Shown: positions 5,853 to 41,100 of the stretch, one piece after another
How positions within the stretch are numbered: the stretch's first letter is position 1
Layout of the letters: each line of letters opens with the position of its first letter
Assembly: GCA_001724265.1 (NCBI GenBank)
Contig: MEDY01000057.1
Location: 1 to 64,000, forward strand
DNA from: Rhizaria sp. SCN 62-66
Lineage: Eukaryota
Direction: 5' to 3'
Length of the DNA: 64,000 nucleotides
Made by a program: the position numbers and the translations under genes
The notes under the pieces: model-generated
What the model saw: only the letters and a program-made list of their open reading frames with translations
The model's database searches: none
Told to the model about the DNA's origin: nothing

Positions 5853-7983
5853 TTACGCGCGTGCCTTGCTGTTGTTGACGAGCGCAGCCGTAAGCTCTTC
5901 AGTCGCCGCGCCCTGCTTCAGCCCTGCAAAGTCAACGCTCCTGAGGCGGCCCTGCACGCGCGCGGCCTCGGCAAGCGCCTTCACGGCGGCGTCCGTGACT
6001 GCGTAGTTGAGCCCCAGTCCGAGCTCCGCGAGCGCGGGCGCGGCGCCGGCGCGGAGCGCCGCAGCGAGGGCCGACACGCCCGCATCGCCGAAGCTGTTGC
6101 TCGTCAGGTGCAGCGCCGTCAGCGGCGACGGGGTGCCGGCAGCGTGCAGGGCTGACAGCGCGGCCGCGAGGGAAGTCAAGCCCGGGTTGCCGAGCTGCGT
6201 GCGTGTGGGGAATCGGTTAAAGCAAGAAAGAGAAAAAATGACATTATGTAAGATGAGAAAACAAATCGCGTTTCAATATCAGTCGGTGCTCCTATTAAGG
6301 AAATGTGTGTTTGCAATATGATTGCAATGCTACTGATGATAAAACGTACCGACGTGTTGTTCAGGTGGAGCGTCGTGGCCGTGATCAGCAGCCTGCCTCC
6401 GTTCGATGGGAACAGCAGCTTCGCGCCTTCATCCCCTACCGCATTCCCGGTCAAGTTCAGCTCGCTCAGCGCCGTGCGGCCGAGCTGACTCAGCAGCGCG
6501 CGGTCGTCATCCGTCTCGTGTGAGATCTTGTTGGACTGGAGACTCAGCGTGCGCAGTGACGTGTTCTGCTCCAGCGCCGCCGCGAGCTCGGCGGCGGAGA
6601 AACGCGGCGCGGGCTGCTGCTTGAACGCCAGCGCGCGCACGTTGAATTGCGCCATGTCCAGCGCAGACACGCTATTGGCGCGCAGAGTCTCGCGGTAGTC
6701 GATGAACCGTGCAGTCGCGTTCTCCGCACCACCGGCACCCGCACTCGAGCTCGCGCTGGCGTTGGCGGCAGCGTTCGTGTTGTTGTTGTTGGAGCGTTTG
6801 GCGCTGAACGGGAAGAGCCCCTCGTCGTCGTCGTTGGCGCTAGCAACAGCAGCCTTGGCCTTGGCATCAGCCTCGGCGACCTTGGCTTTAGCTTCCGCCA
6901 CAGCCTTCGCTCTCGCGTCAGCCTCGGCCTTGGCCTTGGCCTCGGCCTTGGCCTTGGGGTTGGCGTTGACCGCCGCCGCCTCGCGCAGCTTCGCCAGCCC
7001 AGGGCCGTCCCGCAGCCCCGCTGTGACAACCGTGGCGAGCCGTCCCTGCGCGGCGGCGGCGGCCGCGAGCTCGGCCAGCACGGCGTCACTGGCGGCCGAG
7101 GCGGAGAAGCCCGAGTTGAGCCCGAAGTCGAGCTCGGCCAGCGCGGGCACCGCGCCGGCCGTGAGGGCGCGCGCAAGGGCCTGCAGACCGGCGTCGCCCA
7201 GCGCGTTGCCGGAGAGGGAGAGACGCGCTAGTGGCGACGGCGACGGGGACTGGGAGTGCGCGGCGGCGGCAGAGGTGAGGTGGAGCAGGGCCGTGGCGAG
7301 CGCAGTGACGCCGGCGTGGGTCAACTGTAGCCGTGTCAAAACAAGATAACAAATTGAAGGGAGTAAGTGCGAATCAACAAGTACGCAGAAATGATCGAAG
7401 TAACCAAGTCGATGGACTGCCTACCAAAAGAAAAATGCAAGATGATAACAGTTTTGTTCGTTATGATGTCGTTTTGTAGAGAAATTGAAGTGTAAACGTA
7501 CCGCGTTGTTGGGGAGACGCAGAGTAGTGACAGTGCTCAGGAGCTTGTTGCCGCTCCCGCCAGCGCCAGTGGCAAACAAGAGCTCCGCGCCTTTGTCCCC
7601 GATGGCGTTGCTGCCCAAGTCAAGCTCTTCCAGTGCAGAGCGGCCGAGCTGAGTCAACAGCGCACGGTCGTCGTCAGTCTCGTGCGAGATCTTGTTCCCC
7701 TGCAGCGTTAGCGAGCGCAGGGACGTGTTCTGCGACAAAGCAACCGCCAAGTCGCCAGAGGAAAAGCGCACGGGCGGCTGGTCGCGGAAGGCGAGCGCTC
7801 GCACGTTGAACTTGGAGAGATCGAGCTCGGTCACGCTGTTGGCGGCGAGGGACGCACGGTAGTCTGTGAAACGCGCGGTAGCGGTACTCACGGTAGCCGT
7901 GGCAGAACTCGTGCTGGGGACGGTGGTACTCGCAGTAACAGCGGGGGCGGCGGAGGATCGCTTGGCGTTGAAGGGAAACAGAG
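5853..7983 (-). repeat. Internal tandem duplication of an exon-intron-exon LRR module (about 7983-6960 and 6820-5853)
   Basis: Both copies encode LFPFxAKRS, FNVRALAF, QNTSLRxLxLQxNKISHETDDDRALL, PALAELxxGLN and QGRL, with an intron at the same position. Confidence 0.85.
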
Positions 7984-8320
7984 CGTCGGCGTCAGCGCTG
8001 TCACTATTCGCAGCAACAGCAGCAGCAGCAACATCAGTGTTGTTTGCAGTGCTGGTGTTGTTTTTGCTGGAGGCGGGCTCCGATTTAGCCTCAGTCGCGG
8101 AAGCAGCGGAATTGGGCGCCACGGCGGCAGGTGACTCGGGCTTGGCTGCGTGTGCATGCTTGTTGCTGTCGCCGTCGTGAGCAGCAGCAGCAGCAGCAGC
8201 GTTGTTGTCAGACTTGTTCTCGGGCTTGTTGTTGTTGTTGTGATCGGGGTAAGCCGCGGGCTTGGGGCCGGTGGCCGGGGACGGTTCGGCAGCGGTGGCC
8301 GTGCTGGCACCACAACCCAT
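5853..8320 (-). CDS. Leucine-rich-repeat (RNase-inhibitor-like) protein with N-terminal acylation motif; 3 exons: 8320-7502, 7324-6350, 6194-5853
   Basis: Starts MGCGAS (N-myristoyl Gly plus Cys). RI-type LRRs LRSLTLQGNKI, LEELDLGSNAIGDKGA, LARLSLSGNALGDAG. Two phase-0 GTACGT...CAG introns (7501-7325, 6349-6195) join three ORF-track pieces in frame. Ends TAA. Confidence 0.85.
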
Positions 8321-10682: not shown

Positions 10683-11313
10683 TTACGTGGAGCCATAGGC
10701 GCGGTCGGCGCCTGAGCCTGCGCGCTGCAACGTGGCCGGGTTGTTTGTGATATGGCCACCCGAGGCCTTGATGGCGCACATCTGCAACGCAAGCGCCCAC
10801 TCGCGGCACTCCTCGGCAGACTTGGCCTGGATGTCGAGCTTGCCCTGGGACGACGCGGTGAGGTAGATCATCGCCTTGGTCGTAGAGACGTCCGCCGCAC
10901 ATGTTGCGCCGTAGAGGGAAAACTGGCGCAGGGGCACCGTCGCCTGCGAGAGGTCGAAATAGAGCGCGTATGGAACGAGAGTGAGTGGATCATGTGAAAA
11001 TGATTGAGATGATTGGCGCGAGCGACAGACAAACGAGTGAAGTGAGACAAGGGTTGTTGCAAATGAAAATGGCGCAGACAAAGAGCATAGTCGAGTGGCT
11101 GTCGGTGAAAACGAGCAAGCATTGATAGGCAAGACAGGGTTTACGTACGGTCTCGCCCGAAAAAATGAAGACGGTGTTGTTGCGGATGACGACGTAGCGC
11201 TTCTCCCACGCGCCCCAGGGGCAACAGCAGAAGGTCGTCTCCATGTGCACGTGCAGCCACCCGGCCTTGATGATCAGACCGCTGTTCAGGTCGCGGCTAG
11301 CAGGCGCCTCCAT
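10683..11313 (-). CDS. Small stand-alone PH-domain protein; exons 11313-11149 and 10943-10683
   Basis: IIKAGWLH...WEKRYVVIRNNTVFIF joins across a GTACGT...CAG intron to ...IQAKSAEECREWALAL, the typical PH C-terminal helix with Trp. Confidence 0.85.
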
Positions 11314-11835: not shown

Positions 11836-13564
11836 CTATGCATGCGCTTGTGCCAGTGCATCTAATGCCCGCTTAAGCGCGGGCATATTGGGCGCCACAG
11901 CCGCGCCCGCGCTCGCAGCTGCAGCGGCCGCCACCGTCTCGGCGCCTGCGTTGCCGCGCAGCAGCTCGCGGTCACCCACGAGCGCGCCGTCGTCGCAGCC
12001 ACAGCGGGGGCCGGCGCCCACACGGCCAGCGTGGGCGCGAGCGGCGCCGTAGCACGCGTACGCGGCCCCGCCTGCCGCGACTGAGTCAGGACTCCCGCTG
12101 CTCTTGCTCGCGTGCGTGGTGCTATAGACAAGAGGGCCCTTTAGAATCGTATCGAACCACTCAGTGCCCAGAGCCACTTGCTCCGCACTGCGCGCGTTCG
12201 CAGCAGCAGCAGCACCGGTGACACGCGCAGAGACCGTGATCGCAAGCGGCAACGGCCCCTGCGCTGGCTCCGGTACTGACAAGCGCACTGACGTTAGAGC
12301 AGCAAGCGCAGTCTCGGGCACAGCGGCGCCAGTGCGGCTGGTGCGAGTGCTCGCAGCGGTGCTGAGCTCTTCGACGATGACGACGTCGCTATCATCGCCG
12401 CTCGCCTCGTGCTGACGCGCATCAGGGCGCGTATCTGTGCTCCCATGTGTACCTGTACTTGCTTGACCACGAATACTCGCATCACAACGCTGTTGTTGTG
12501 CCACTGACTCGCCACCAGCACAGCCGCCACTGCCGTCAACCGCTGCAATAACGGCGTCAACGGGGAGAAAGAACGGCGAGGTATAAGACAAGTAATGTTG
12601 TTTGTTCTTAAGCGCCTGTGACGAGAAGTCTTGTGAAATCACGTGCAGATGCAGCTGCGGCAGCGAGGGCAGCGCGTGGAAACCCAAACGCACGCGCGCA
12701 GACGGCGGGTAAGCGTTGCTGTGGCTGCCGCTGTTGCTGCTGCTGGTGTGCGCCAAATCTGTCGTTGAGTCAACGTTGTTGCTCTGAGAAACAGTAGTTG
12801 TGCCGATGTCGCTGCTTTCGTGGGTTAAGTCAGAGTTAGAAGTGGCGACGACAGCGGCGCAGAGCGCAGCAGCAGTGGTAGACGCGTGCTGCACACAGGC
12901 AAGAGGCGCTGCAGCGACCGAAAGCAGCGGGGCGTAAGCTGACTCTGGCACGAACTTACTCATTGGCGTCGAAGTCAAGCCGTCACCGTCGTCGCCGCGC
13001 GCTGAAATTAAGCCGCGCGGGACCGACCGTGCGTAAGCGCTGTCTGGTGTGGTGTGCAGCGCATAGAGCGCAAGAGCGCGCAGTGAACGCAGCGTGTCTG
13101 CGGCCTGGGTGCGGGACCGGGTTGCAGCGAGAGTGTGGAGCGACAAGAGGGCGGCGTCGCGTGGGACTGAAAAATGAAGATATAACAAGGATATAAACGA
13201 TTTTTAATAAGGCATGCAAATATTCGTTATTTTCTATAGAGTTAACCCAAAATGTAGTGTTATTTTTAGTATATCTTTGCAACGTACTGACGAGCCAGTG
13301 TGTTTTGGCTTTGGCGTAAGCGTCCTGAAGAACGACGAGCGAGGGTGAAAAGCACACCACAGCGGGGTCAGCCTCCAGTGCGTCATCATTACGCATAGCC
13401 ACGCGTACCAGTGCGGTCATCCACGCAGGGCCGCGAACGAAAGATGGCGCAGATGTGTGGGAACCGCGCACAGCATTGGATGCAATGGATGAAGCGGCTG
13501 CCTAGCGGGCATCGTAGGACGACTCGCGGGAGCGCGAGCGCGGGCGCGCTGCAGGAGCGGACAT
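11836..13564 (-). CDS. APTX: Aprataxin-like HIT-family DNA 5'-deadenylase; intron 13287-13167; start uncertain (13564 with in-frame TAG, or 13420)
   Basis: Spliced QDAYAKAKTHWLVIPR, then RLGFHALPSLPQLHLHVISQDFSSQALKNKQHYLSYTSPFF, the aprataxin/Hnt3 signature. C-terminal PNMPALK resembles a remnant of the zinc-finger helix. Confidence 0.85.
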
Positions 13565-13934: not shown

Positions 13935-16155
13935 ATGCTGTCTGAGATCATCCTGACTCCCGGTCAGCAGGCGGTTCTTGCCACGATTGCAATCAGTGTC
14001 CTGCCGACGCTGGTGCTGCTGTTGGTGCCATTCTGCCACAGCTCGCGCGCTCCCGCTGCTAATGGTGGCGCCGCCGCCCGCAAGCAGTCCCCCGTGCCCC
14101 CGCGTCTGCTGCGCATTCTGCTCGCGTTTGCCGTCGGTGGCCTGCTCGGCGACGCGATTCTGCACCTGATCCCGCACGCCGTGTTTCCCCACGACCACGC
14201 TGGCGACCACGCTCACAGTCACGGCCTCGGCCACGCCCACAGTCACTCGGCTGTCGCGAGTGCTGGCCACGCGGTTGTCTCGCTCCCTCCCGCTGTCGCT
14301 CCGGCGGTTGTTGTCGCTCCTGCTGCTGCTGCTCACAGTCACAGTCACGACCATGATCATGACCATGACCATGGACATGGACATGGACATGGACACGCGC
14401 ATGCCCACAGCCATGCTCACAGTCACGACGACCACGGACATGGCCATGCCCACGGTCACGACCACGACCATGGACATGGACACAGTCACGGGGGCCGCAA
14501 GTGCAACCATGACCACAGCAACGACCACATTCACGCCCTCGGCGGCCACGCTCACGGTCACGGGCACGACCACAGTCACCATGAACACGCTCACAAGAAG
14601 GTCGATGCTGCTGCTGCGCCTGCGCCTGCTGCGGCGACGCATGCTAAGACTGATACTGCTGCTGCTGCTGCTGCTGCTCACAAGCATGAGCACGAGCATG
14701 ATCATACGCACGATGACCACGGCCACAACCACGGACACGGCCACGCGCACAGTCACGACGACCACGCTCACAGTCACGATGCCCATGCGCACGGTCACGC
14801 CCACGGCCACGATCACGGCCACGATCACGGCGCGTTCACCCGCGTTGGTCTGCTCGTGCTCGCAGGCATGGGCATCTTCTTCATCATCGAGCGGGTGGTC
14901 GCAGCCGCCCGCGCCGCCGCGGGGCTCGCCCCCGGGCACGGCCACAGCCACGGCGGCCACGGCCATGGCCACGGCAATCACTCCGCCGCCGCCGCGAGCA
15001 GCAGCAGCAAGGATGAGAGCGAGAGCGAGCAAGAGCCGGAGCAGACCGAGGACAGCGATATCGTCCGTCTCCGCCGCAGCTCTCGCTCCCGCGCGACCGC
15101 TACCAAGCCCAAGGCGGCTGACAACGCAAACGAGAGTGCCAATGCGAGCAAGAGCAAGAGCAAGACTGGCAAGCGCGCCACCAAGCCCGCTGTCCCGGCC
15201 GCTGATGCTTCAGCTGACTCTAAGACTGAGGTGGCTTCGACGAAGGGCGACGACGACGAGGAGGAGTCGACGCTTTCCGTGCTCACTGGCTCGCCCGCTG
15301 CGCTGCTGAACCTCGTGGCCGATGTGACGCACAACTTCACTGACGGTCTCGCTATCGCGGCGGCCTTCAGCGCAGGACAGGGGGTACGTGTCACTGTGAG
15401 ACTCTCATTATTCGAAAAATATCACATGTTTATATCAAAACTTAATGGTTCTATCTGTATTTATATGGATATTTTGCTTTAGAACTGTATGACTTCGGTT
15501 TCATGTTGTTGGTTCAATGCTCATTTATGCCCGCTTCCAACCTCTTTGTTTGCCTTATTTCTCTTTGCTTCTAGCTTGGTATCTCGACGCTGCTAGCCGT
15601 GCTTGTGCACGAAGTGCCGCACGAGCTCGGTGACTTTGCCGTGCTTGTCCAGGCCGGGCTCTCGCCCCAGCGCGCCCTCAAGATGCAGTTCGTCACCGCC
15701 ATCGGTACGTCACGCAAATCTACGAAATCAACGTCACATCACACTAAAGATTGAAAAATCGGTATTCGCTTTTGGATTCGCATATAATGGTATTTTTATT
15801 TAGTATTCTAATACTAACTTATATCACCCTGATTATGTTTCTATCGTGACTATTTGGTGCTTTTAAACACACAGGTGCTTTGCTTGGCGTTTTCGCTGGT
15901 CTGCTGGCGGCCGACACGTTCACCGCTGCATCCACAGTCATCCTACCGCTCACGGCAGGCGGGTTCATCTACGTCGCGCTCGTCTCGGTGCTGCCTGACT
16001 TGCTCAAGCCGCTGCCGCGCGATGTGGGCGAGAGTGACTGTGAGCTGCCCGGTGACGAGGCCAGTCCCGCGGCGCAGCTCGTAGACACGGCGTCGCTCGT
16101 TGCAGCGATGGCCGCAGGCGTATATCTCATGGTACTGATTATCGAGCTCGAGTGA
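13935..16155 (+). CDS. ZIP (SLC39) zinc transporter, LIV-1 subfamily, ZIP7/KE4-like; exons 13935-15383, 15575-15704, 15875-16155
   Basis: [41 protein letters not shown], spliced [17 protein letters not shown] (HEXPHEXGD motif) and [20 protein letters not shown]. Two GTACGT...AG introns keep the frame. Confidence 0.93.
14190..14830 (+). repeat. Coding His-rich (HX)n low-complexity tract inside the ZIP transporter
   Basis: Degenerate hexamers such as CATGGA, CACAGT, CACGGC and CATGAC encode HGHGH/HSHDH/HAH runs. Confidence 0.85.
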
Positions 16156-16732
16156 AGGGGTGTCTGCGCGCCTTAGATTGGCTTGACAACAGAGCAAAAG
16201 TAGCTTTTGTGCAGCGGCAATGTGAACAACGCAAGTCAAATTTCCTGGGATATGAACGCATCTTTAAACGTGCGGTAAGACCGGACGATATTCACTGATT
16301 AAAATATTGTTGTGCAAACAAATACACTTGGTTACATAGTTGTATCTAGCTATCTGTGCTCTTGTTTCAAGTCAAAATATCGAAAAGCCACGTCTCACTG
16401 GACGAGTTTTTCGGTCCAGCTCAAAGTCGAGTCGGCCGATCGTTTTCGTGAGTAACGGCGGAGGAGTGAACGCAATCGCGTGACCGTCATAGAATCAGTT
16501 GATGAAAACATAATTAACATCAATAATATATCACTGCAAATTCTACCTTTGCGTTTTACTCACATCTCTCCTTGCGTTTTCTGTCCTGCCACATCGCCAC
16601 TTTCAGACAGCCCTAACAGCCTTAGCTGACATTGGGCTCGAATCTCCCTTTTTCTCGCGTCTCTCTCAGTCAGCGTTCTTCCCAAAACTCTCTCGCGCTA
16701 AGCTCATTTAATCTCACCGCACGCATTCCGCG

Positions 16733-17944
16733 ATGATGGCTACAGCCCCGCCCGGCGCGCCGCAGTGGGACGCCATCGACAACTTCCCGATCGACAGCAC
16801 AACCAGCAGTAGCAATGCACCTGCCGCGTCATCATCGTCCTCCGCCGCGGGCCCCGCTGCTGGCGGCTCCCAGCTCTACTACATCAACCCCAACGCGCCC
16901 GCCCCACAGCAGCAGCAGCCCCAGCCTCAGCAGCAGCGTGGCCCGCCCCCGCCGCTGCCCCCCGCGAATCTTATGTACTCCCCACACTCTTACCAACAAC
17001 AACAGCAGCAGCAGCAGCAGCCGCAGCAGCAGAGGCAGGCGCAGCCCCAGCAGCGGAAGTCGTACGGCTACCCGCCGCACCCGTCGCCCGCCGCGCCCCA
17101 CCCGAACTACAGCAGCCCTCAGCAGCAACAGCAACCGCAGGGACAATATCAGCAAAAGCAGCAGCAGCAGCGTCCGCCGCCGCCCCCCATGGCATCCAAC
17201 CCTTATCAGCAGGCGCCGCTCTTCTCCCCCGCTTCCCCCGCCTCTCAACAGCAGTTGCAGCAGCAGTATCAGCGCCCGCCGCCCCAGCAGCAGCCGCAAT
17301 CTCAGCTGCTGGCGCAGTCGACGTCGCACCTGAGCGAGGATGAGCTCGAGCGCCGCTACTTCCGCCAGCGCGAGGTCGGCGCGTACGGCACGCTCCAGGA
17401 CGACTTGTCCTCGACCTTCGCAGCCGCACAGCGCACTCTCAACCCCTCGCTCTCGCAGTCGCACGCGCTCGCACAGTCGCAGTCGCACCAACACCCGGCG
17501 CCCTTCAGCGCGGGGCCCGGAGCCGAGGCGTACTCGTACTCGGCGCAGAGCCAGCATTACGGCGGTCAACAGCAGGGACAACAGCAACAGGGTCCCGTTG
17601 CTGTGTTTGCCAACGGGCCCCACGGCCCCTCGCGCCGCCCCAACAACGGCTCTCAACAGCAACAGCAGGTGTACCCCGCGACGTCGTCCTCGTCCACGGC
17701 GTCGGCGTCGGCGCTCCCCGGCCTGCCCCGCGGAACGCATGGGGGAACGCGCGGGGTCTCTGCGGCCCCCGCAGCGCCGAAGCGGCAGCACCCGTTCTTG
17801 CGGCAACAGGCCGCGTCCTACGGCGTTGGCGTCGGCGGCAGCGCGAATAGCGCCAAGCGGCCTCCGCAACAGCAACAGCAGCAACAGCGGAGTCAGCAGA
17901 GGCCGAGTAGTGGGGCGCGCAACCGCGGTGCTGCTATGACTAAA

Positions 17945-17975
<31 letters not shown>

Positions 17976-20550
17976 CGAGGCAGGGTGGCGACAGTCACGG
18001 GTACGACACGTACGGCTCTGGCGCCACCGCCGGCTACTACACCAATGCCGGCTACACGGACAACAACAACAACAACAACAACAACAGCTACGGTGGCTAT
18101 GAGGATAATACGTTTGGCGGTGCCGCCGGCGCTGACGACGGCGACGGAGGTGACTATTTCGACTTCCTGACCGCACACAATGCCCAACAGCAGCAGCAAC
18201 AACAGGAACAACGACAGGGTTGGGGTCAGAATGGCGCCGGCAACCCCCCGCCTCCTCATGGTGTGGGCAGCGAGCTCCTCGCACTGCCCTCGGCCCCCGT
18301 CGACCACTACGGCAGCGCACACGGCCACAGTCACAACGGACAGCAGCCGCAGCAGCAGCAGCAGCCGGCGGCGGCGCGGCCGTTTCCGCCCCCCGCGCCC
18401 TCAGCTCGCGACTACCCCCACCTCGCCGCCGCCGCCGCTGCAGAGCAAAACAACAACAATAACAACAACAACGGTCAGTTTGTGCCCGGTGACCTCAACT
18501 TCAACGCTAAGCCTGCGTATAGCGGCTCCCCTGCTGCGTCGTCCCGCGGCACCGGCGCCGGCCGCCCCGCTGCGTACGCGCCGGACACGCGCGCCTCGCA
18601 GTCTGCGGCGCCGTACCTGGACCCGCGCGTGCCCGGCCCGCCGCCACAACCCGCCCCCGCGCTCACCACGGCGCCCCGCATCGCCGGCCTCCGCGCGCAG
18701 GACCAGCAGAACGCGCTGCCGCAGAGCTCGCAGGCGCAGTCTCAATCGCAACAACAGGCGGCGCAGTCGCACTCGGCGCTGCTTGCGCACGCGTCCGCCG
18801 CGACCAACTGGGCGGCCGATCACCCGCATATCAAGGCCGCGTGGGACGATCATACCGCTGCGCTCGCCGCCGCTAACGGCGCTAACAACAACAGCAACGG
18901 CACCGCTGGACCTCAGCAGTCTCAGTCTCAGCAGCGGTCTCACCGGACCGGCGCGAACGCGGCGGGGCCGGGGGCCAAGAGCGGTGGCGAAGGGGGGGAA
19001 GAGAGCGTGGCGGCGCGGCTGCGGCGCGCGCGGCAGGACGAAGACATGCGCGCGCGCGAGCGCGAGTGGCAGCGCCTCGTCGCCGGCGGCGGCAGCAACA
19101 GCGGCGGCAACGGCAACGGGAATGCTTCTTCGACGACGGGCAAGGCCGGCGCCCAACAGCAGGGACAGAGGGCTGGGCCGCAGCAACCTGGACAGCAGCA
19201 GGGTCAACAACAGCAGCAACAGCAGCAGCGGGAACGCGAGAGGTTGGAGGCTGAGGCGTGGGCGCAGTATGAGCGGGAGCCGCCGCTGCAGCAGGCGTAC
19301 CTTGGACTGCCTCCGGAGCAGCAGCAGCAGCAGCAGCAGCAGAAGGAAGCGCCGGCGACGGTGACTGACGCTGACGCCGATGTTGAGGCTGAGGCGGAGT
19401 ACCAGCGCGACTCCCAGCAGCAGCAGCACCAGCACCAGCACCAGCAGCAAGGATTTGGATCTTCCAAGTCTCAGTCCCAGTCTCAGCCTCAGAATAACGG
19501 TGAGTCTGTTGGTCCTGAGTCTACCGGCAATGCGACTGTGAACAACAACAGCAATCCTGACTCTGCACCTGTCTCCGAGCGCCAGCTAAGCCAAAACTCG
19601 TCTCAGAACAACAACGCCAACAACACTGGTGGCGGTTACGCGTCCGCCTCCCGCTCTGGCTCTCGCTCCGGCTCCCGCGGTGGCGCTACATCCGCCAACG
19701 GCTACGGCTCTGGTTCTGGCTCTGGCTCTGGCTCTGGCTCTGGCTCCGGCTCCCGCGGCGCCCCTCGCTCCCGCCCCGCCTCCCACAGCAACAGCAACGG
19801 CAACAGCAGTAGTGGTGAAACGGCCGAAGAGCGGTCCGCCGCGGCCCAGAAGCGCGCCCAACTGCTCACTCTACTGCGCTCCCAGAAGGAGTGGGAGACG
19901 CAGCACCGCGCCGCCGTGATCGGTGACCGCAAATCGGAGCACGCCGAGATCGTCTCGGCCCTCCGCGCCGCCGATTTGACCGGCAAGGCGCTCACGGCGG
20001 AGCAGTTGCGGCGGGAACATAAGGCCGCGCAGGCACTGGTGGCCGCGGCGGCGCAGCAGCACGCGCGCGCGACGGCGGAGCGGCGGCAGGAGCAACGGCG
20101 CGACGCCAAGCGCGCCGAGCTGGAGCGCGAGGCCGCCCGCGAGGCCGCGCGCAAGCAGCAGGCCGAGGACGAGCAGCGCAAGTTCGACGAGCTGGTCCGC
20201 GCGCTCCGCGAAGAGCAAGAGGCCACGGTGCAGGCGTACGAGCGCGAACGGACGCTGGAGCGCGCACGCGAGGTCGATAACCTCAAGCGGCGCTTTATTG
20301 GCGAGCGGATCGCCAAGATCACCGGTCAGGGCGCGCCGGCCGGGGGACTGGGCTCGGCCACGGTCACGGGCGCGGTGCCAGCGCAGCTCGCGGCGATGTA
20401 CCTCAAGCCGCTCGAGAAGAGCAGTAACAACAACAATGGCAACGGCAACGGCAACATCAACGGCAATGGCAACACTAACGCGAGCAACGGCGAGCAAGAC
20501 GAGGCTGATGCGAACAGCGCAGGCGTCGGCCGCTCCCCTAAGCAGCGGTC

Positions 20551-20589
<39 letters not shown>

Positions 20590-20926
20590 GTCGCCGCGGT
20601 CTGAGTCGCCGCGCTATCTGGGCAGCAAAACGGCCGGCGCGCGCGGGGCCCGCACCTCCGCCGCCGCCGCTGCTGAGAAGGAGCAGAGTGAGAGCAAGAG
20701 CAACAAGCCCGCGGCGGCTGGCAACAAGACCCGCGCTGTGACGCGCGCTGAGAAGTCGTCCTCTAACGCGCCCGCGACCGCGAATGGGAATGGGAGTGCG
20801 AAGAACAGCAGTGACGCTGCGGATGGCCCGCATGTGGAGGATGGTGGCGATTATACATACGCGCCGGAGGACGACGAGAGCGGCGCTGCCCACGGTTACT
20901 TGAGCCCCGAGGCGCATGGACAACAA

Positions 20927-20965
<39 letters not shown>

Positions 20966-22884: not shown

Positions 22885-23344
22885 TCAGTTGCGCCCATAC
22901 GCTGTAGAAGCACCAGCCATGACAGACCCCGGCAAAGCGGCAGAGCGCATGGGCTGCGCGGCGGAGTCGGCGGGGCCGACTGGAATCACTCTCTCGCAGA
23001 GGTGAGACCACGCGTCTGCGGGGCGGTTCAGCTCTTGTGCAACGTCTACAGCGCCGGAAATGTCGAGCACAAGCGCAGACACGCCGCTAGCCGCTGTATT
23101 GACCTCCTAAGCAAGCGAGAGCGAGTGAGAGCAGAGCAATGATACGGGCGAGTGAGGCGAGGGCTTCAAGAGGAAACAAGGGGTTAGAATGCAATTTAGA
23201 TATCAGGAACAGAGTATAAACTAAAACGGTAAGACGCAAACGTACGGAAACAATGGCTTCAAGAAGCTGGGCCATTTCGGCATCGAATGCACTGCCAGTG
23301 ACGGATGTTGGAGCACGGTAGGAGAAGTTCGCAGTACCACTCAT
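22885..23344 (-). CDS. Small protein resembling DASH/Dam1 complex subunit Dad1; exons 23344-23246 and 23106-22885
   Basis: GTACGT...TAG phase-0 intron gives AFDAEMAQLLEAIVSEVNTAASGVSALVLDISGAVDVAQELNRPADAWSHL, which follows the Dad1 pattern from F(E/D)xE to VxxE(F/L)xxxxxxWS. Confidence 0.55.
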
Positions 23345-27184: not shown

Positions 27185-27696
27185 ATGAGCGAGTCGTTCC
27201 GTCCTGCGAAGCTGCGCGCGTGCATTCACTGCCGTCGTGTCCAGTACGAGAAGGATTTCACCTCGACAGGCTGCGCCAACTGCGGCACCCGCATCTGCAC
27301 CCCCAACTTCGTCGGGTCCGTCCTTTCATCTCCTTTCCCCGCTATCTCTCGCCCCGCAACAATTTTGTAACACCCCCGTCTCACCTTGCCCGCTTACCCA
27401 CAATTGTTTTGTGTTATATTCGCCGCGTTTGTAGGCTGATCGCGATGATGACGCCGCGCTCGTCGTGGGTCGCACGCGCCCAGAGCATCGTCTCCCTTAA
27501 GCCCGGCACCTACGCCGTGTCCGTCACGGTGCCCGAGAACGCCGAGGCCGCTGAGGATGAGGAGCTCGACGCCGGGCTTAACGGCGTTAACGACGAGTAC
27601 GAGGACGACCTTGCGGGGCTCCCCGACGCTGACAGGGAGGCGGAGACCGGCGGCGCCGGCCGCAGCGCCATTCGTTACGACGACGAGGACGACTGA
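27185..27696 (+). CDS. SPT4: Transcription elongation factor Spt4 (DSIF small subunit); exons 27185-27315 and 27435-27696
   Basis: LRACIHC...GCANC...CTPNFVG/LIAMMTPRSSWVARAQ...PGTYAVSV, joined by a GTCCGT...TAG intron. Acidic C-terminal tail. Confidence 0.92.
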
Positions 27697-29807: not shown

Positions 29808-29858
<51 letters not shown>

Positions 29859-32800
29859 GTCGCCCCGCTCCCGCCGCAAGCGCGCCGCCGAGGCCGATGC
29901 AACCGACGCCGCGACTGCGAGCGAGATCGCCAGCACGAGCACCGGCTCCCTGGCGTCCATCGCAGAGGCCGATGACGATGACGACGCCGCCGCCGTTCCT
30001 CCCCTCGCGTCGCGCAGTGGCTCCAAGCCTGCGTCCGCGTCCGCTGCCGTCCCCGCCGTGGCCGCGGCCGTTTCCCGCTCCGCTTCAGCCCTGTCGCCGC
30101 CGCGCCCCGCCACTTCGACCGCGGCCACGCTCGCCGCCGCGGCCGCGGGCAGTCCCGGCGCGACGCGCGCGTCCACGGGCGCCGGCGGCGGGCACTCCGC
30201 AGCCGACGCGGCGCGGTCACCGCGGTCGCCGCTGTCGCCGCGCGGCGGGCTCACCGATCCCATCGGCGGCGCGGCCAAGGTGCCGGCGCTGAGCCCGCGT
30301 CTGCGCTCGCCGCCTCAGCAGCAGCGCTCGCACTCGCAGTCGCCCTTGCAGACGCTGTCGCAGACGCTGTCGCAGACGCAGTCCAAGTCCCCCTCACAGT
30401 CGCTGTCACATCTGCAGTCGCAGGTGCAGGCGGTCGTTTCGCAGTCGCTCTCGCAGTCGCAGAGTGACGCTGGGTTGATTTCCCCCCGTGCGCTGTCGTT
30501 CACGTCCATGACGGACACCGACGCCGCCGCCGCTGTCGCCGCTGTGCCTTTCGTCGCCAGAGACAACATCGCCACTGCACAGCCACACAGCGCCGCTTCT
30601 AATGCTGTGAGCACCCCGGTGAGCAGCAAACTCAACGCGAGCTTTGATGCTGGCGAGCTTTCGGCCGCGCGCCGTGCCCGCGGCGGCAGCGAAAGTGCGC
30701 GCGCGCGCCGCAGCGCCGGCGCCCCGTCACCCGCGTGCCCCAGTCTCACTGGCACCGATATCGGTGACAACGGTGACTCTGCTATTTCCGCTGACGCAGC
30801 ATCATCCGTAGCCGTTGCAGTCAGGCCCGGGGCGTTGACGCGTGCGGTCAGCGACGGCGCGGCCGTGGCCGCCGCTGCAATGAGCGACGGCGACGATAAT
30901 GATGCCACTGTAGACATGAGCAGCAGTGCCGCGTTTCTTGGCGACGACGCCGACGCCGACGCCGACATTGTCAGCGATGCCGATGCCGACGCCGGCGCCG
31001 ACGTTGACACTGACGCTGACGGTGAGGCGCTGGGTGCCGGCGGTGAGGCCTGGACAGACACCGACACCGACAGCGCAAGCGAGGACGCGAGCGAAGAGCA
31101 GCAAAACGACGACGACGACGACGAGGGTACCGTCACCGGCGACGGCGGCGACGATGCCGGCACCGACGCTGCCGTGCGCCGACGCCGCCAGCCATCGCCG
31201 CGGTCACTCAAGGCCATCTCGCGGCTCCCGCAGCCGCAGCAGCAGGCCGCCATGGCTGCGGCGGTCAAGGCCGTTGAAGAGGAGGACGAGCAGAACAGGT
31301 ACGAAATTGCACTTGACAAAACAATATTCAACAATATCAACGTATTTCCGTCATTTATAATCATAAGCTGTATGACAATAGTTTTATCTTAATATTTCGA
31401 ATATTATGTTATATTTGTTGATATAAATCATTTTTAGGCACCCGTCGTCTCCGATCCCGTCGCGCGACCGCTCGCTGCGCCGCCGCCGCACCGCGCTCGC
31501 CATGCCGGCCCCCATGGATCTCACGGGCTCTGCCGACGGCGACGGCGGCGACGGCGACGGCGAGACAGGCGCAGCCGCGGCGCCCGCGCTGCCGCCGCCG
31601 TCTGAGAGCGTGACCGACGAGACGTACAGTCACGCCGGGATCCCTATCACGCCCATTGCGCCCCGCACAGTCTCCCGCGCCAAGAACAGCTCCACCGACA
31701 GCAGCAGCAGCGCGGCGAACGCGGCGAGTGCGAGCACCAAGCTCAGATTCGGCGAAGACGACGAAGCCCCCGCCTCGACTGCTGCTGCCGTTTCTGCAGT
31801 TTCCTCTGCGGCTCCTGCTGTTTCCGTCTCAGTCTCCGTCTCGATCCCTGCTGCTGTTGCTGTCGGCGCACAGGGGCAGGGCGCGAGCGCGTCGCCACAG
31901 TCGCCGCGCCGCCGCCTGGGCCCGCGCGAAGGCGACGACCCCATCATCACAACGACCGGCGCGTCCCCCTTGACTTCGCCCTCCGCTCTCGCCACCGCCG
32001 CCGCCGCCGCTGCGAGTCTTGCTGGCGGTCTCACTGGCGCCGGTGTTGGCTTAGCGTCCGCCTCCGCGTCCGCAGTGCCGACCCCGATCCGCAAGGCCGC
32101 CGCCGAGGGTCTCGAGGCCGCACTCCACAACGCTAGCAGCACCGCTAGTAGCGGAAGCAGCGGCAGAGTGAGTTTCAGCGCCCTGCCGCGCCCGTGTCAG
32201 GGCACCCGTGAGCCGTGCGCCGCCGACGCGCGGCCCGCGACCGCTGGCATCCTCCGCCGCGAGCCCCGCGGCCCCCGCACTGACGGGCGCCACCTCCGGT
32301 TCTCGTACGCGCACTGGGCCGCGTTCCCAGTCTTCCCGGACTGGGGCAAGTGCCCGCACGACCCCACCGGGTTCGCGCTGGGGCTCAGTCCCGTGGCCGA
32401 GTCCGCGGGCGTGATGACCGTGACGGCGCGCGAGAACGCCAAACCCGCGATGGACTCGTGCGACATCGAAATGCGTACGTTCATTAGTAACTTTCGCAAT
32501 TTCAGAGCAAAGCAATGTTTATCTGTTTGTTTTTGATGCACCGACATTAATTTCTATTTCTAACTTGCGTTTTTTTCTTTCTCTTGTTCATTTAAACGTT
32601 TTCTGTTGATTTTCTCGTTTTATTCTCAATTTCCCAGGTTTGCGCCGCGTGGCGTGGCGCGAGGCATTCTACATCGTCAAGGCACTCGCGCCCGCGCTGC
32701 TGCCGCGCCCCGACGCTGCCGCGCCGCCGCTGTACGATCCCGCCGTGGTGCAGCGCGAGGGCGTCAGCGCGCTGCCAGCGATTGTGGCCACACTGGGCGG

Positions 32801-34742
32801 CGAGGGCGTTACGCTGCGGTTTGGCTACGCGCCAGAGACGGGGCCTGACGCGCCTGCGCCGCCCGCGCTGTTGACTGTGGGCGCAGGCAAGTCCGCCACG
32901 CTCAACCCGGAGGCTGTGGAAATGATCAAGCAAGGTATGATCGATCTATCAAAACGAAAGACACATTCAAAGCTAGATTGGCACGAATCGAAGTACACAT
33001 ACTATCAATTCATTTTAAATCCCTTTGATATCTCTCACATTTTCCGTTTTTCTATCTTTAAATGCATTTTCTCCGTTTTGCGCAATCTAGCGTTGATCCC
33101 GACGTCGCGTCTGCACGGCGTGTTCAGCTCCATCGCGCGCGACATGGCGCTGGGAGAGATGTTCTCCGTGGCCGACACGCCCGACGATGCCATTACCGCA
33201 GTCACCGCCCCGCCGCCGCACCCGCGCGCGGGGCTCCCCGTCGCGGGGCCCGAGGCCGTGACGGACTACACTGCTGCGGTCCGCGCCGTCGTCAACGCCC
33301 CGCTCGGCGCGTTCACCGACACCGGCGATCTGCAGCGCCTCAAAGAGCACCGCAAGTTCGCCGGCTGCTCATGCCGGCTGCGCGTGCCGCTGTGCCCACA
33401 CAGGGACTACCGGTACGACGCGGCGGCGCTGCATCCGCTGCTGCCGCCGCCGTTCGGTTCGGGCTCGGCGTACCCGCTTGCGTCGCGCTACTGGCTGCCC
33501 ACAAACCGCGATGGCGGGGGCCGCGGCCCGCTCAATGAGCGCAACGAGGACGACGAGGAGGATGAGGAGGACGCGGCGTTCGACTACGACACGTCACAGG
33601 CCAAGTCAAGTGAGGACGAGGTCGCACTGGCGCTGGCGCATGTCATGGGTCTCGCCCCCGGGTCCCGCGCGTACCCCGATGAAACGGGCGGTATGTGGTG
33701 CGATGATGTCAAGTCTGCGAGTGAAGGATGCGCGATTTGCGAGCTGCTGGTGTGGGACCGTGTGGTACGGTGCGATGAGAACTCGTGCCCCTGCTTCCTC
33801 TCTGGAGTCAAGTGCACTGCGTACGTCAAACATAACAAGGAAAACAAAAACACTTCAATGAGTGGATGTCTGGAAATGAATTGATTTTCGGTTTAGTCAT
33901 TATGACGATCCTTAAACTAAAGCCGTATATTAATGTCATTTACTCACGCTTGAACTCATCAGAACTTTTATTTGTGTTTCATTCGATCTTTTTACGCTTT
34001 TCGTAGTGACGCGTGCGGTTGCTCTGACGACTGCTGTAAGAACCCCAACTCGCGCCACGAATTCGACGACGAAAAAGTCAATTTCTTCCGCATGCACGTG
34101 GTGCGCATGGCGAACACGCGCGTCACCAACAGCGAGACCGAGTACGCACTGCCCGAACGCAAACTCGCGGTACTTAAGGAGCGCATGAGGGACATGTACA
34201 TCCGCCACGAGCGGTCGGTCCACGACGTCCGCGTGTCGCGCCGCCAGCAGGCGCGGGTCGAGGCCCTCCGCCGCGGGCTGCCGGGTGCGGGCGGCATTGA
34301 GCTGGTGTCGGCGGAGGACACGGCGGCCGAGGAGGCGCGCGCCACGGCGGCGGCGGACCTCGCGTTCGGCGGCGCCAGCACAACCGACGTCCCCGGCGCT
34401 TATACGGAGCAGGACGTGGCCGAGCTGGACGCGATGTTCGAGGCCGAGATCCGCGCCGCCGCTGCCGCCGCCGCTACTATGGGCGAGGCGGCGGGATCGC
34501 AGGCTCTGACGGAGGAGCAGATCGAGGAGAAGATTGCGCAGATGCGCCGCTTTCTGCCGCCGGCCATTGCGCCGCTCGCGCTGCCGACGCCCGTGCACAG
34601 TGAAGAGGCGGGGGACGAGGGCGACTACGAGGGCGACGCCGAGGCGGACGCGGATGCGGAGGCGGAGGCCGAGGTGGGGCATATTGAGACCGAGAGCGAG
34701 AGCGGCGTCGAGGTCGGGGTGGCCATGGTTGACGGCAACTGA
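28531..34742 (+). CDS. CSRNP/AXUD1-like cysteine-rich nuclear protein with a very long low-complexity N-terminus; exons 28531-31298, 31438-32474, 32638-32934, 33091-33820, 34007-34742
   Basis: Four GT-AG introns join four ORF-track pieces in frame. Blocks GILRR...HLRF...FALGL, DLQRLKEHRKFAGCSC and CDENSCPCFLSGVKC...CGCSDDCCKNPNSRHEFDDEKV parallel the CSRNP_N domain. Confidence 0.7.
29809..29856 (+). repeat. (GCT)16 microsatellite encoding poly-alanine
   Basis: Sixteen perfect GCT units within exon 1 of the CSRNP-like gene. Confidence 0.9.
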
Positions 34743-35541: not shown

Positions 35542-35965
35542 TTAGATGGTGCCCTGGTTGCTCTGGAGGGCGGCAATCTGCTGCTTGAGCAGCGCAATCT
35601 CCTCGTCCTTCTCGCGGATCACGCGCTGCTGCTCCTCGACAGTCTTCTTGAGCTTCTCCGTGTCCTCGCGCACAGGCGCGCCGAGGTACTCCTTGACGAA
35701 GTCGTTGGCGTTGACAGGCTTCTCGGGCAGCTCGTACAGACCGACGATGACCTTAGTCAGGTTGTCCAGGACGCCAGCCTTCTCGAGGTAGCGCTGGAAC
35801 TCCTCCTTCTTCGCGTCGCTCGACTATAGACAGGAAATCAAAACAAGTGGCAAATAAAGCGTAGTGCATAGCAAGTGAGCATTGCTGTGACGTTGTATCT
35901 GTTATAATCAGAGGTTGAGCGTCGAGGAAAGGCAACATGGAGTGTTAACGGACCTGCATCGACAT
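35542..35965 (-). CDS. MYCBP: c-Myc-binding protein homolog (MYCBP/AMY-1); coding exons 35965-35954 and 35823-35542; not in the ORF track
   Basis: ATG TCG ATG CAG then a GTCCGT...TAG intron, then SSDAKKEEFQRYLEKAGVLDNLTKVIVGLYELPEKPVNANDFVKEYLGAP and a coiled coil. Ends TAA. Confidence 0.92.
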
Positions 35966-36424: not shown

Positions 36425-37679
36425 TTAGAGCATGGGGTTGACCTTAACGATTCCGTCGGCACGCGTGCGGAACTCCTGCCCGCCACGCGCGGCCACCACG
36501 CCCTCACTGTAACACGCGTTCTGGAACGCAGTCATCTCGCCCACCAGCGCCGTCTGCAGCGCCGCGCGCGCCGCCGCGATGGCCGGGCCATGCTCCGCCC
36601 GCGCGGCCGCGACCGCAGCCTCGGCTGCGGCGACGGCGGCGGCGGCGGCGGCGGCGGCCTTCTTGCCCGCGGTCATCTGGTTCTGGCGCGCCTTGGCCAG
36701 CGCGGCCTCGAGCGGAGCGACGGCGGAGAAGGCCGCCACGGTCTCGGCCGCGCGCGGGCCCGCGAATAGCAGCGGCAGCGCGAGATCGATCGCGGCCGCG
36801 GCCTGCGCGGCGGCCGGGGACGGGCCGGACGCCGCCAACACGGCCTTGCCGCTGAAGCCGTTGGCCTTCGTAGCGGGGGCCACCGAGGACGCGGCGGCAG
36901 CGGAGGCGGACTTGGCAGCGGCGGCGGCGGCGGCGTCGGCCTTGGTGGCAGGAGCCTTAGCGGCGGTGGCGGGCGCAGCAGAGGCGTCACCGGCGACGAA
37001 CGACACCTCGACGCCCTTGAGGCCCTTGTTCTTGCACTTAAGCACGCCGACCTGCTTGATCTCGGTCAGGTCCGCGACCGTGACAGCGGACGGGTACAAC
37101 GCACGCAGCGCCGCGGCGTCCGCGAACGGGGTTGCGCCGGTGATGATGGCGTTTGCGAGCTCGAACGCGCGCGACGCGATGTCCTTGATGTACGCCTCCT
37201 TGGCTTCGTTCTCGCGCGCTTCGGTCTCCTTGGCGCGCGCCTTAACCTCGGCCTCGGTCTGCGGCTCGGGCGCAGGCGCCGCGGTGGCGAGCGCGGCGGA
37301 GAGGTACGCCTCGAGAGGGCTGGTCTGGCCGGCGGCGTACAGCAGAGTCATCTCAGCCCTGTGCGACACAGAAAGTGCCAAACAACGCAAAACAGCACGA
37401 AAATCGGGAATGTAATGAGAATGTGCGATATAAGACACGAGTGAGTCAGTATCAATTGCTGAGAATAAAACGTGAGCGTGCTAGACGTTGTGCGATGCGG
37501 AGAGCTGCGTGTCGAGGCGATATGGTAAGCACGTACTTGGCGTTGGAAGGGAAGGTAGTGTCCTTCCAGTCAAGGGAGACGCCAATGGTCTGCTGAAAGG
37601 CGGAGAAAAGCACCATGGCAGCGGTGGTAGTCAGAGGGGTCTGCTTGGCGCGGTTGCGCTCGCAAGGGATGTCGGCCAT
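36425..37679 (-). CDS. Protein with a degenerate AlaRS/ThrRS editing (tRNA_SAD/AlaX)-like N-terminal half; exons 37679-37537 and 37358-36425
   Basis: A GTACGT...CAG intron joins two ORFs. TTAAMVLFSAFQQTIG, AFELANAIITG and DLTEIKQVGVLKCKNKGLKGVEVSFVAG echo AlaX structural blocks without the metal ligands. The gene model is solid and the family call is tentative. Confidence 0.55.
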
Positions 37680-38157: not shown

Positions 38158-41100
38158 ATGGATTTGACTTGCACATTTTCGTCTTCTTCGCTCTCGGGTG
38201 CGAACGCGGGCGCGCAAGATACGGGCGAGGACGTGGAGGCCTCGATCACCATCACCGTAGACCCCGATGACGACCCGACGCACGTGGTCCGCGAGCTCTG
38301 CGTCGCCGAGGGTCTCCCCGCCGACTTTACGCGCTCCTTCGCCGCGCTCGTGCAAGACGTCGTTGACGAGGCCTCCCGCGCCGCCCCGCTGCCGCAGTCG
38401 TCCCTCACTGCCGCCGTTATCACCGCGTCCGCCGCGTCCGCGTCGTCGTCCCTGCTCTACAGCGACAAGCCCGTCATCGCCCGCCCCGAGGACACCGCCG
38501 CGGCCGCCGCGCAGCAGACGCAGACGATTGCGGAGACCGCCGCAGCTGCGTGGGCCACGTTACTCCGCGCCGGCCGCATCCCTGCCGCCGCCGCCGCTGA
38601 CGCTGCCGCTGACGCCGCCGACACGACCCACACAGACGGCGACACGCCAGACTCGGCTCCTTCGGGGGCCGTGGCCGTGTGCGCGTCTGCGTCTGCGTCT
38701 GCGCTGGCGGCGTCTGCGGCGTCGCACGCGTGGGCGACCGCCTACCAGGCTGTCATCGCCCGCCGTGACCTGCGGGGTGCACTGTTCGCCTGTGTGCGCA
38801 ACCTCGCGGCGGCGACGAGGCTGCTGCACCGGGCGCGCGCGGGGGCGTTTGCCGCGCTTACGACGCAGCACGCGCGCGAGATGGAGACCGTCATGCGCCA
38901 ACAGGTACGGTACATATGTCAAAACTGTCACCGCAGCAGCTGCTTGGCAACCGCACACACACTAATATCAGCACGAAACACATATATTCATACCATATCA
39001 CATCGTATCATATTCAGACAATATTCGACATGATATAATAACAGATTCATATCATATATGATATCATATCTTGTTTCATTCGTCTATTCATTTCTATAGT
39101 CCTCATTTTGCTCCAATCCTTTCGATATTGTTACTTTTTTTACCTTTCTTTCTCAATGCGATACTCGAATATAGGCCGCATCTGGCGGCGTCCGCTCGAT
39201 CACTTCCGCAGCCGCCGACCCGTCCTCCGGCTCCGGCGCTGGCGACGCCCTGAGCGCGCTGGTCTACGCGCACCTCTCGGCCACCGAGGCCACGCACGCG
39301 CTGTGGCGTCGCCGCCTCGATACGCTCCACGCCACGCAGCGGCGTCTGTTCCGCGCACTCGTGTTCAAGCTCGCTGACGCCGCACTTGGCGCGAACGCGA
39401 GTGCGAATGCGTCCAACGCTGCCTCATCAGCGCTCGCCGTGCAGGCCTCTTCCTCCTCATCGTCAGCGGCGGCGGCGTCTTCGGCGGCGGCGGCTGCGAG
39501 CGCGGCTGCAGATACCAATGCGCTGCGGCGGCTGGCGGGGTGGTTTGCCCGCTCCGCCCCTCCTGCTGCCGCCGCCACCGCCGCCACAGCCGCTGCCTCC
39601 TTGTCCTCCTCTTCTGCAACGGCCAGTGCGAGTACGAGTGGGAGCGCCGGCGCGGACGCGGCCGCGCGGTCGCCGGTGCTGCTGCGAAGGCAGGTGTTCC
39701 TCGGAGGCCAGCAGAAGGCCGAGTTCTTTGTCACGCTTGAGCTCGGCGACTGCGAGGCTCTCACGGACACCAACTGGGACATTTCAGAGAGCTCGGCCGC
39801 CGCCAACACTGCGGCCGCCACTGCTGCTGCCATCGCTGCTGCCACGGCGGCGACGGAGCCGGGTTCTGCCGAGGGCGGCGGCTCTGAGGGCGACGGCGCG
39901 ATGGCCGTGGCGATCGGCGGCGCGACGGTGCGCGCGGCGGCGGAGCTGGGCGCGCAGAGCGACCTTGCCTCGCTCTTGGTCGCGCTGGGCGCCGGGGCCG
40001 CCGCGGGCGTGGTCGTCAACGCCCAACAGCAGCAGCAGCAAAGCAACAACAGCAACAGCGCTGGGAGTGATAACGAGGGAGCGTGGAGCGCTGAGGCGGC
40101 TCGGCTGTCTGGCCACGCGGATGCACTGTACTCGCGCGCGCTGACGGCGCTGGTGCTGCCGCAGCTGCCGGAGGGACTGGTGCTGGCCAGGGATCGCCGC
40201 GAGGCCGGCGGGGCGATGGCCTGTCTCCGCGTCAACAAGGTACGTAAACGCTACAACGCAAGAACATTTCAAGAAATTCGAAAATCAAATGGAAATACGC
40301 CTTGCAACTCGAGAATTAATATTATTTCACTCACGTATATCTTTGCATCTGGATTTCCTTCGTGTTTTGTTCTTGTTCTCCAGTTCGTGGAGGCGTGTGA
40401 CTCGTCGTCGGAACTGCACTTCCCGCCTCTTGTGTCCCAGCTTCACGACCTTACTTCCAACCTTGCCGCTGCCTACCGCGCCGCACATCCCACCGCCGCC
40501 GCCGCTGCCTCGAACAACACTGGCGCTGGAATCGGCGCTGGCGCGAGTGCGGGTGCCAACTCACGGCCGTTGCCGCCCGCGACGCGTTTGCTGCACCCGG
40601 GCGACGTGGTGACGACGGTGCACTCGAACCTGCGCGCCGCGCACGCCGTGCTGCACCTGGTCTCGCTGCCGACCTTCTCCGCGCGTGCCGCGCAGGAGGC
40701 GCTTGACCGCATGTCCACCCCCGCACTCGCCGCCGCCGCCGCCGCAGCCGCCGCAGCCGCCGCCGCCGCAGCCGCCGCCACGACTGCCAGTGCGACTACC
40801 AGCGCGGGCACCGACCCCGCGGCTGCTGCGGCGGCTGCGGAGGCGGCGGACCGCGTTTCCGCGCACTGCGCCGTGCTGACGGGGCTGCAAGACGCGCTCT
40901 TGGCAGCCGACTACCACTCGGTGGCATCAGTCGGCGTGCCGCTGGCGCTGGCGGGTCACACGGATGCCGTGGACCGCGCCGTCGCCCCCGCCGTCGACGT
41001 GCTTGTGGCCACGCACGCCGCCACGGCCGCCGCCGCCGCCGCGCAGCAGGGCCACGGACAGGGCGACGCAGCGAGCGCGCGGTCCGCGGCCGCGGCCGCT

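Follow-up and report, generated by a model that had tools for sequence, protein, structure and literature searches.

The window analyzed here is a 64,000-nucleotide (nt) stretch of contig MEDY01000057.1 (positions 1 to 64,000, forward strand) from the assembly Rhizaria sp. SCN 62-66 (GCA_001724265.1), and our subject is the set of 5′ splice sites, or donors, of the 16 introns that interrupt its genes. The window is gene dense, with long open frames separated by AT-rich spacers and a GC content of 55–77% across 4-kb bins. Pfam profiles identify eukaryotic genes for CWC22 (MIF4G and MA3 domains), a ZIP transporter, Spt4, a FERRY subunit 3-like protein (Fy-3), an EF-hand protein, a protein with LRR_6 repeats and a HIT/DcpS_C-like protein; several open frames of great length and low complexity match no family. 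There are 18 gene models, 10 containing introns and eight with a single exon, the latter complete as they stand. All 18 begin with an ATG close to where the open reading frame (ORF) opens and continue to a stop codon with the 16 introns only, giving a density in this window of 0.33 introns per kb over ∼49 kb of coding sequence.

Near-identical DNA is found in bioreactor and wastewater metagenome runs, with 94–100% of sampled words present in the DNA runs X1–X3, and the contig therefore belongs to an uncultured eukaryote. The spliceosomal protein CWC22, encoded by an intronless gene, finds its best matches in Paulinella and Plasmodiophora, at 44–47% identity at most. In a quick maximum likelihood tree of 41 sequences it forms an unplaced branch of 1.35 against a median of 0.22, about 6-fold longer; so long a branch points to a fast-evolving splicing machinery or a fast-evolving lineage. 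No relatives of this CWC22 were found in viral contigs. A search with the third exon of Fy-3 returned one relative, the JGI metagenome protein P0124 (67% identity), whereas with the LRR protein the sole match was P0125, a paralogous exon ORF of the window itself. The LRR exon ORF is on record from seven contigs, of which the longest measures 102,647 bp. An atlas look-up with the ARM-repeat protein yielded nothing of taxonomic use. The host lineage is fast evolving, intron poor, GC rich and uncultured.

The introns were sought without reference to any splice motif, by sliding 30-nt windows across the 18 gene models and collecting islands of at least 60 nt with GC below 45%. This yields 22 intragenic islands: the 16 that reach at least 95 nt are exactly the 16 introns, and the remaining six (63–92 nt) are coding runs, open in frame and rich in Asn, Ser and Lys. 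The introns of the original prediction, whose outermost limits were 6195 and 40383, are in this way confirmed independently of the donor motif. Excision of the 16 segments restores a single continuous ORF in all 10 intron-containing genes, and continuity of Pfam profiles backs four junctions, namely both ZIP introns, the SPT4 intron and Fy-3 intron 2. The Zip profile passes from positions 111–199 in the tail of exon 1 to 205–246 in exon 2 (HEVPHELGD) and 248–322 (of 323) in exon 3; the Spt4 profile covers 1–24 in exon 1 and 47–77 (of 77) from residue 1 of exon 2; and the Fy-3 profile, matched weakly by exon 2 at 149–213, resumes at position 304 with the first residue of exon 3.

The introns are 119–270 nt long and have 24–51% GC, with surrounding exons at ∼60–75%. 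All 16 begin with GT and end with AG, all have a YAG acceptor and none has a U12-type donor (GTATCC or ATATCC). Among the 15 of 75 RNA joints listed, one of the 16 introns shows a precise spliced joint: contigs of cDNA from runs X8 and X10, which belong to one sample, join 35823 to 35954, and the CT..AC ends of this joint on the plus strand correspond exactly to the predicted intron of the MYCBP-like gene with donor CAG/GTCCGT. Most of the listed joints have sides of ∼21 nt in GC-rich, low-complexity sequence and are spurious. The joint from 30151 to 30696, which has GT..AG ends, was rejected as an intron, as it skips 544 nt, a length not divisible by three, with a GC content of 71%. Each of the 16 AT-rich segments is a U2-type GT-AG spliceosomal intron of the ordinary kind.

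The donors are as first read: GTACGT in 11 introns, GTCCGT in two, and GTACGA, GTACGG and GTATGA in one each. Position +4 is C in 15 of the 16 (+4C), T in one and never A, and +5 is G throughout. Around these positions, +3 is A in 14 and C in two, +6 is T in 13, A in two and G in one, and the last exonic base (−1) is G in 10, C in four and A in two. Measured against the introns' own composition (24% C, 13% G), the probability of at least 15 C at +4 is 5.6e-9 and that of 16 G at +5 is 5e-15; for at least 11 of 16 boundaries to carry GTACGT by chance, P is ∼1e-21. It is donor placement, not abundance, that is special, since just 11 of the 25 copies of GTACGT in the window are donors, and the total is not enriched over the 19.4 ± 4.3 found in shuffled sequence. 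By eye against the gene models, no GTAAGT, GTGAGT or GTATGT lies at an exon-to-intron GC drop on the coding strand of the window.

The 14 other copies of GTACGT include in-frame exonic ones in the EF-hand gene, and because these exonic copies do not, by frame logic, serve as donors, the hexamer looks necessary but is insufficient on its own to define an intron. Sense-strand copies within GC-rich coding sequence lie at 21873–21878 and 22110–22115 (minus strand, EF-hand gene) and at 61165–61170 (plus strand, in a giant ORF).

The original prediction further proposed that exonic bases compensate for departures from the hexamer. Its counts hold, in that G occupies −1 in all five non-GTACGT donors and in five of the 11 GTACGT donors (Fisher one-sided p = 0.058), and AG occupies −2/−1 in four of five and one of 11, respectively (p = 0.013, a post hoc comparison). 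The compensation itself amounts to a weak trend, not proof.

When the 16 introns are compared with one another by BLAST, all against all, nothing aligns beyond chance words of 9–13 nt (best E-value 0.005). The LRR gene (5850–8319, minus strand) encodes a protein with an N-myristoylation-type start (MGCGAS...) and contains an internal tandem duplication. An intron closes each half of this gene, in phase 0 and at the matching position in both. The flanking exon DNA of the two repeats is ∼70% identical and the intron interiors are at the level of shuffled sequence (0.58 versus 0.56), yet both introns begin GTACGTTT, which argues that selection, and not shared ancestry, has kept the donor alike. 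As the introns are AT rich, +4C and +5G are not a by-product of GC pressure, and +4C is clearly held by selection. The GTACGT donor pattern is real and selectively maintained.

Toward the 3′ end, 14 of the 16 introns carry a CTYAY motif (yUnAy type; mostly CTCAC or CTTAC) that precedes the 3′ splice site by 35–70 nt; shuffled introns yield a mean of 4.1, and 14 was reached in none of 1000 shuffles. The motif is followed by T/G-rich runs of the TTGTTT or TCATTT type, and its distance to the acceptor is constrained and rather long. CTYAY is probably the branch site; no strong branch motif of the TACTAAC or ACTGAC type occurs in the introns.

Table 1. Introns and other features. Positions refer to the window unless a metagenome contig is named; donors are written as the last three exonic bases/first six intronic bases, with the position of the first intronic base in brackets.
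Feature	Position	Strand	Length (nt)	Donor (first base)	Remarks
LRR gene (N-myristoylated), intron 2	6195..6349	-	155	tcg/GTACGT (6349)	acceptor GCAG; low-GC island; gene minus both introns is a 737-codon open frame
LRR gene, intron 1	7325..7501	-	177	gcg/GTACGT (7501)	homologous position of the internal gene duplication
Small PH-like gene, intron	10944..11148	-	205	acc/GTACGT (11148)	frame continuity and low-GC island
HIT/DcpS_C-like gene, intron	13167..13287	-	121	tca/GTACGT (13287)	phase 1; spliced ORF 514 codons, junction reads ...THWLVIPRDAAL; DcpS_C match in exon 2
ZIP transporter, intron 1	15384..15574	+	191	ggg/GTACGT (15384)	
ZIP transporter, intron 2	15705..15874	+	170	tcg/GTACGT (15705)	phase 1
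Small orphan gene (~104 aa, ATG 23344), intron	23107..23245	-	139	tcc/GTACGT (23245)	low-GC island; frame traced by eye from ATG to TGA; without homology support
SPT4, intron	27316..27434	+	119	cgg/GTCCGT (27316)	phase 2
~1,850-aa orphan gene (28.5-34.7 kb), intron 1	31299..31437	+	139	cag/GTACGA (31299)	GC 24%; gene minus four introns is a 1,877-codon open frame
~1,850-aa orphan gene, intron 2	32475..32637	+	163	tgc/GTACGT (32475)	
~1,850-aa orphan gene, intron 3	32935..33090	+	156	aag/GTATGA (32935)	sole +4 T
~1,850-aa orphan gene, intron 4	33821..34006	+	186	tgc/GTACGT (33821)	frame and low-GC island
MYCBP-like gene, intron	35824..35953	-	130	cag/GTCCGT (35953)	immediately 3′ of the fourth codon
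Ala-rich orphan gene, intron	37359..37536	-	178	caa/GTACGT (37536)	phase 2; spliced ORF 366 codons
Fy-3 gene, intron 1	38905..39174	+	270	cag/GTACGG (38905)	spliced ORF 1,094 codons
Fy-3 gene, intron 2	40240..40383	+	144	aag/GTACGT (40240)	
X5 contig, unspliced	31268-31570				spans 31299-31437
X5 contig, unspliced	32050-32635				enters 32475-32637
X5 contig, unspliced	40141-40440				spans 40240-40383
CWC22	24118-26844	-			spliceosomal protein; intronless
Long Ala/Ser-rich ORF	42179-49243	-			intronless; no Pfam family
Long Ala/Ser-rich ORF	52601-64000	+			intronless; no Pfam family
Long Ala/Ser-rich ORF	16712-21283	+			intronless; no Pfam family
Long Ala/Ser-rich ORF	419-4288	-			intronless; no Pfam family
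Low-GC U1 locus, contig L001	8812-8971, 10191-10348				
Low-GC U1 locus, contig L004	6944-7100, 7593-7753				
Low-GC U1 locus, contig L006	2-164, 956-1121				
Low-GC U1 locus, contig L009	7727-7884, 9106-9265				
Low-GC U1 locus, contig L005					
Low-GC U1 locus, contig L010					
U1, contig L012	227-387				
U5, contig L012	555-666				
U6, contig L012	860-963				

Position +4 of the 5′ splice site is where recognition by the U1 small nuclear RNA (snRNA), the hand-over to U6 and the N6-methyladenosine (m6A) of U6 meet, and lineages in which an unusual base has become fixed at this site serve as natural experiments for asking if snRNAs and splice sites co-evolve. The donor GUAAGU is the full complement of the U1 sequence ACUUAC, and where introns are few an atypical donor with a +4 pyrimidine has often become fixed, U1 being mostly canonical (Roy & Bowser, bioRxiv 10.1101/2022.06.08.495308). 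Within the ACAGA box of U6, the middle A lies opposite +4, and its m6A favors +4A; in intron-poor yeasts the switch from +4A to +4U accompanies loss of METTL16 and SNRNP27K (PMC11732430). By lineage, +4 is A in most and U in budding yeasts, Giardia and Trichomonas (PMC11732430; PMC13548475). With C in 15 introns and U in one, the donors described here do not show the Saccharomycotina-type preference for +4U.

The +4U lineages Saccharomycotina, Giardia and Trichomonas are intron poor and combine near-invariant GUAUGU donors (GTAYGT in the type A introns of Trichomonas) with a canonical U1. As in the window, their hexamer departs from GUAAGU at +4 only, and toward a pyrimidine; unlike here, U is the rule, and whereas U pairs with the unmethylated A of U6, C cannot. 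GTACGT itself is a minor donor in Trichomonas (one of 11 type A introns listed) and also in yeasts. Entamoeba is, like the present host, an intron-poor protist with a transformed consensus, but its GUUUGU donors are changed to U at both +3 and +4, and compensation by a co-evolved U1 (AACAAAC) has been demonstrated there (10.1101/2022.06.08.495308).

The +4C lineages on record are few and point in different directions, U1 being canonical in two of them and compensated in the third. The apusomonad Thecamonas trahens is intron poor, prefers +4C, has a canonical U1 and is listed among lineages transformed by intron loss with an atypical donor (10.1101/2022.06.08.495308). The first two properties are shared here, although our host is not placed with apusomonads and the comparison covers position +4. 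Mamiellales (Ostreococcus, Micromonas) have GYGCGY donors and a canonical U1 with no compensatory change (10.1101/2022.06.08.495308). They share with the present lineage GC richness, compactness, few introns and near-invariant donors with +4C and +5G; however, their +3 is G, whereas here +3 is A, strongly AT-rich introns lie in GC-rich exons and the branch signal is a loose CTYAY only. Mastigamoeba balamuthi combines a preference for +4C and GUGCGC donors with a U1 5′ end of ACGUAC (10.1101/2022.06.08.495308), to which the GUACGU of the window is exactly complementary, but it is an intron-rich amoebozoan (2.5 introns per gene) with +3G and +6C.

Within the portions of the literature searched, no lineage with a GUACGU consensus appears, the matches listed being minor donors of yeasts, Lipomyces and the GTAYGT of Trichomonas; supplements, which perhaps hold species-level +4 tables, lay outside the scope of this search. 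The text of PMC10581693 makes no mention of GUACGU, pyrimidine or cytosine. Homogenized splice signals are characteristic of intron-poor lineages, and both low intron density and a near-invariant non-GUAAGU donor are found in the window. The pattern adds one more case to a phenomenon already known, in which a eukaryote with few introns has a near-invariant donor peculiar to its lineage, here in the rarer +4C form. A further and apparently unrelated +4C lineage would be a useful data point, the more so as its consensus exactly complements the compensated U1. The result cleanly describes a splice signal specific to one organism, is not evidence for a new mechanism, and becomes useful only once the genome is assembled.

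The 5′ splice sites have converged on one strong hexamer, GUACGU, a pattern known from other lineages with few introns. Its bases at +1, +2, +3, +5 and +6, five out of six, are complementary to the canonical 5′ end of U1 (ACUUAC), and in U6 the ACA of the ACAGAGA box can pair with +5G and +6U. What this means for the snRNAs and their modification we infer: unaltered U1 and U6 would read +4C through a tolerated mismatch, as in Thecamonas and Mamiellales, and donors departing from GUACGU may be helped by an exonic AG pairing with U1 and with loop 1 of U5. It is plausible that U6 m6A, together with METTL16/SNRNP27K, has been lost or is irrelevant. On balance we lean toward canonical U1 and U6 with a tolerated mismatch at +4, with modest confidence.

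Several points weigh against this reading. All 16 introns come from a single contig of 64 kb. The introns at 32935–33090 and 40240–40383 are multiples of three and open in frame, so that frame logic does not require them; as the ORF at 32610–33884 reads through the former, that intron is supported by its GC contrast and splice signals and not by frame. The RNA data are low-depth Logan contigs, with joint results covering 15 of 75 joints. In run X5, three polyA-RNA contigs follow the DNA unspliced through or into three of the predicted introns (Table 1). The near-zero coverage of X5 across intergenic bins suggests that this signal is real RNA, and the contigs may represent retained introns or pre-mRNA, DNA carry-over being the alternative. 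For the canonical-snRNA part, the footing is precedent, that of two of the three described +4C lineages, and the third, Mastigamoeba, has a U1 with ACGUAC, which pairs perfectly with the consensus found here (10.1101/2022.06.08.495308). As these precedents cut both ways, uniform +4C by itself neither implies nor excludes rewired snRNAs.

The snRNA genes themselves were sought in the window and in other contigs. The 64-kb window contains no snRNA gene at gathering score or at E ≤ 1, and no tRNA gene. Metagenome contigs were scanned for U1 with a base other than U at position 5, with the loop motifs of stem-loops I and II required. This gave 18 loci, among them nine Rfam U1 genes and one truncated copy (L011), all with ACAUAC, and the method therefore does recover genuine U1 variants. 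No ACGUAC U1 was found in these contigs, the six ACGTAC matches (L002, L003, L007, L008, L015 and L016) not being U1; this null is weak because nothing shows that the host U1 lies in the scanned collection, and because that U1 may be without the required loop motifs. The pattern with any base at position 5, run on prokaryote genome contigs for mis-binned eukaryote DNA, gave nine loci, none of them relevant: three are canonical, animal-like U1 contaminants, and the single ACGTAC match is not U1.

A U1 carrying G for U at position 5 (ACGUAC) would pair with GUACGU at all six positions, consensus and U1 having co-evolved as has been proposed for Entamoeba (ACAAAC with GUUUGU) and Mastigamoeba (ACGUAC; 10.1101/2022.06.08.495308). 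The exact match to the Mastigamoeba balamuthi variant speaks for this, as does +4C in 15 of 16 AT-rich introns, the lone exception being a T that could wobble-pair with G. The long CWC22 branch, consistent with a fast-evolving splicing machinery, and the natural position-5 variants recovered as ACAUAC genes point the same way. Set against them are the canonical U1 of two of the three described +4C lineages and, as weak evidence, the failure of every ACGTAC match (six in metagenomes, one in genome contigs) to prove a U1. We regard a rewired U1 as a serious alternative, though a rather unlikely one. Such a U1, six for six in Watson-Crick pairing with GUACGU, would be convergent, independent of Archamoebae and the first perfect +4C/U1 match, an outcome we hold to be doubtful; loss of U6 m6A might accompany such a change. 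Changing instead the U6 A that faces +4 to G (ACGGAGA) would also pair with +4C, and the position of that A (PMC11732430) and the near-invariant +4C are the sole points in its favor. The available portions of 10.1101/2022.06.08.495308 and PMC11732430 describe no naturally altered ACAGAGA box in U6, and the U6 that lies beside a variant U1 on metagenome contig L012 keeps ACAGAGA. This box is in general among the most conserved of RNA elements. A rewired U6 is very improbable on these grounds.

The uniformity might instead be peculiar to these 16 introns or to the way they were found, with +4 mixed across the genome or with introns of other donors elsewhere in the window, for instance in untranslated regions (UTRs). 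Their small number on one contig, RNA support for one junction only and the blindness of frame logic to UTR introns leave room for this, as does a GTACGA at 13720 (plus strand), at a sharp GC drop in the divergent HIT/ZIP spacer 215 nt upstream of the ZIP ATG. That GTACGA could be the donor of a 5′UTR intron with A at −1, or nothing. However, the introns were recovered from GC contrast without the motif, all 18 gene models are complete with them alone, no common alternative donor was seen by eye at a coding-strand GC drop, and chance gives so many C at +4 with the negligible probability stated above; we consider a sampling artifact improbable. Finally, the introns could be recent copies of one mobile family, with ends identical by descent. 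Introner elements exist in Mamiellales, another +4C group, and the intron lengths in the window are fairly uniform. An introner-type burst is nonetheless essentially refuted by the intron BLAST, with its chance words, and by the paralogous LRR introns, which are no closer than shuffled sequence.

The U1 scan brought to light two further groups of contigs. In low-GC metagenome contigs (29–40%; Table 1), plant-like U1 genes have the 5′ end ACAUAC instead of ACUUAC, and at four of these loci the ACAUAC gene lies within ∼0.5–1.3 kb of a second, canonical ACUUAC U1. As both copies adjoin, one organism keeps a standard and a +4U-matching U1, and both types are mentioned for Physarum (10.1101/2022.06.08.495308). 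GC-rich contigs of marine type (56–60%; L012, L013, L017 and L011) carry dense clusters of U1, U4, U5, U6, signal recognition particle RNA, 5S rRNA, tRNA-Sec and many tRNAs; the sole U1 seen there is ACAUAC, and the neighboring U6 keeps the canonical ACAGAGA.

The window also contains four very long intronless ORFs, rich in Ala and Ser and without a Pfam family, of 1,289 to more than 3,800 codons. The ZIP transporter (13935–15383, plus strand), which resembles ZIP7/KE4 and carries HEVPHELGD, stands out for a His-rich loop of exceptional length, cytosolic or luminal, in which HGH, HSH and HDH repeats extend over hundreds of residues.

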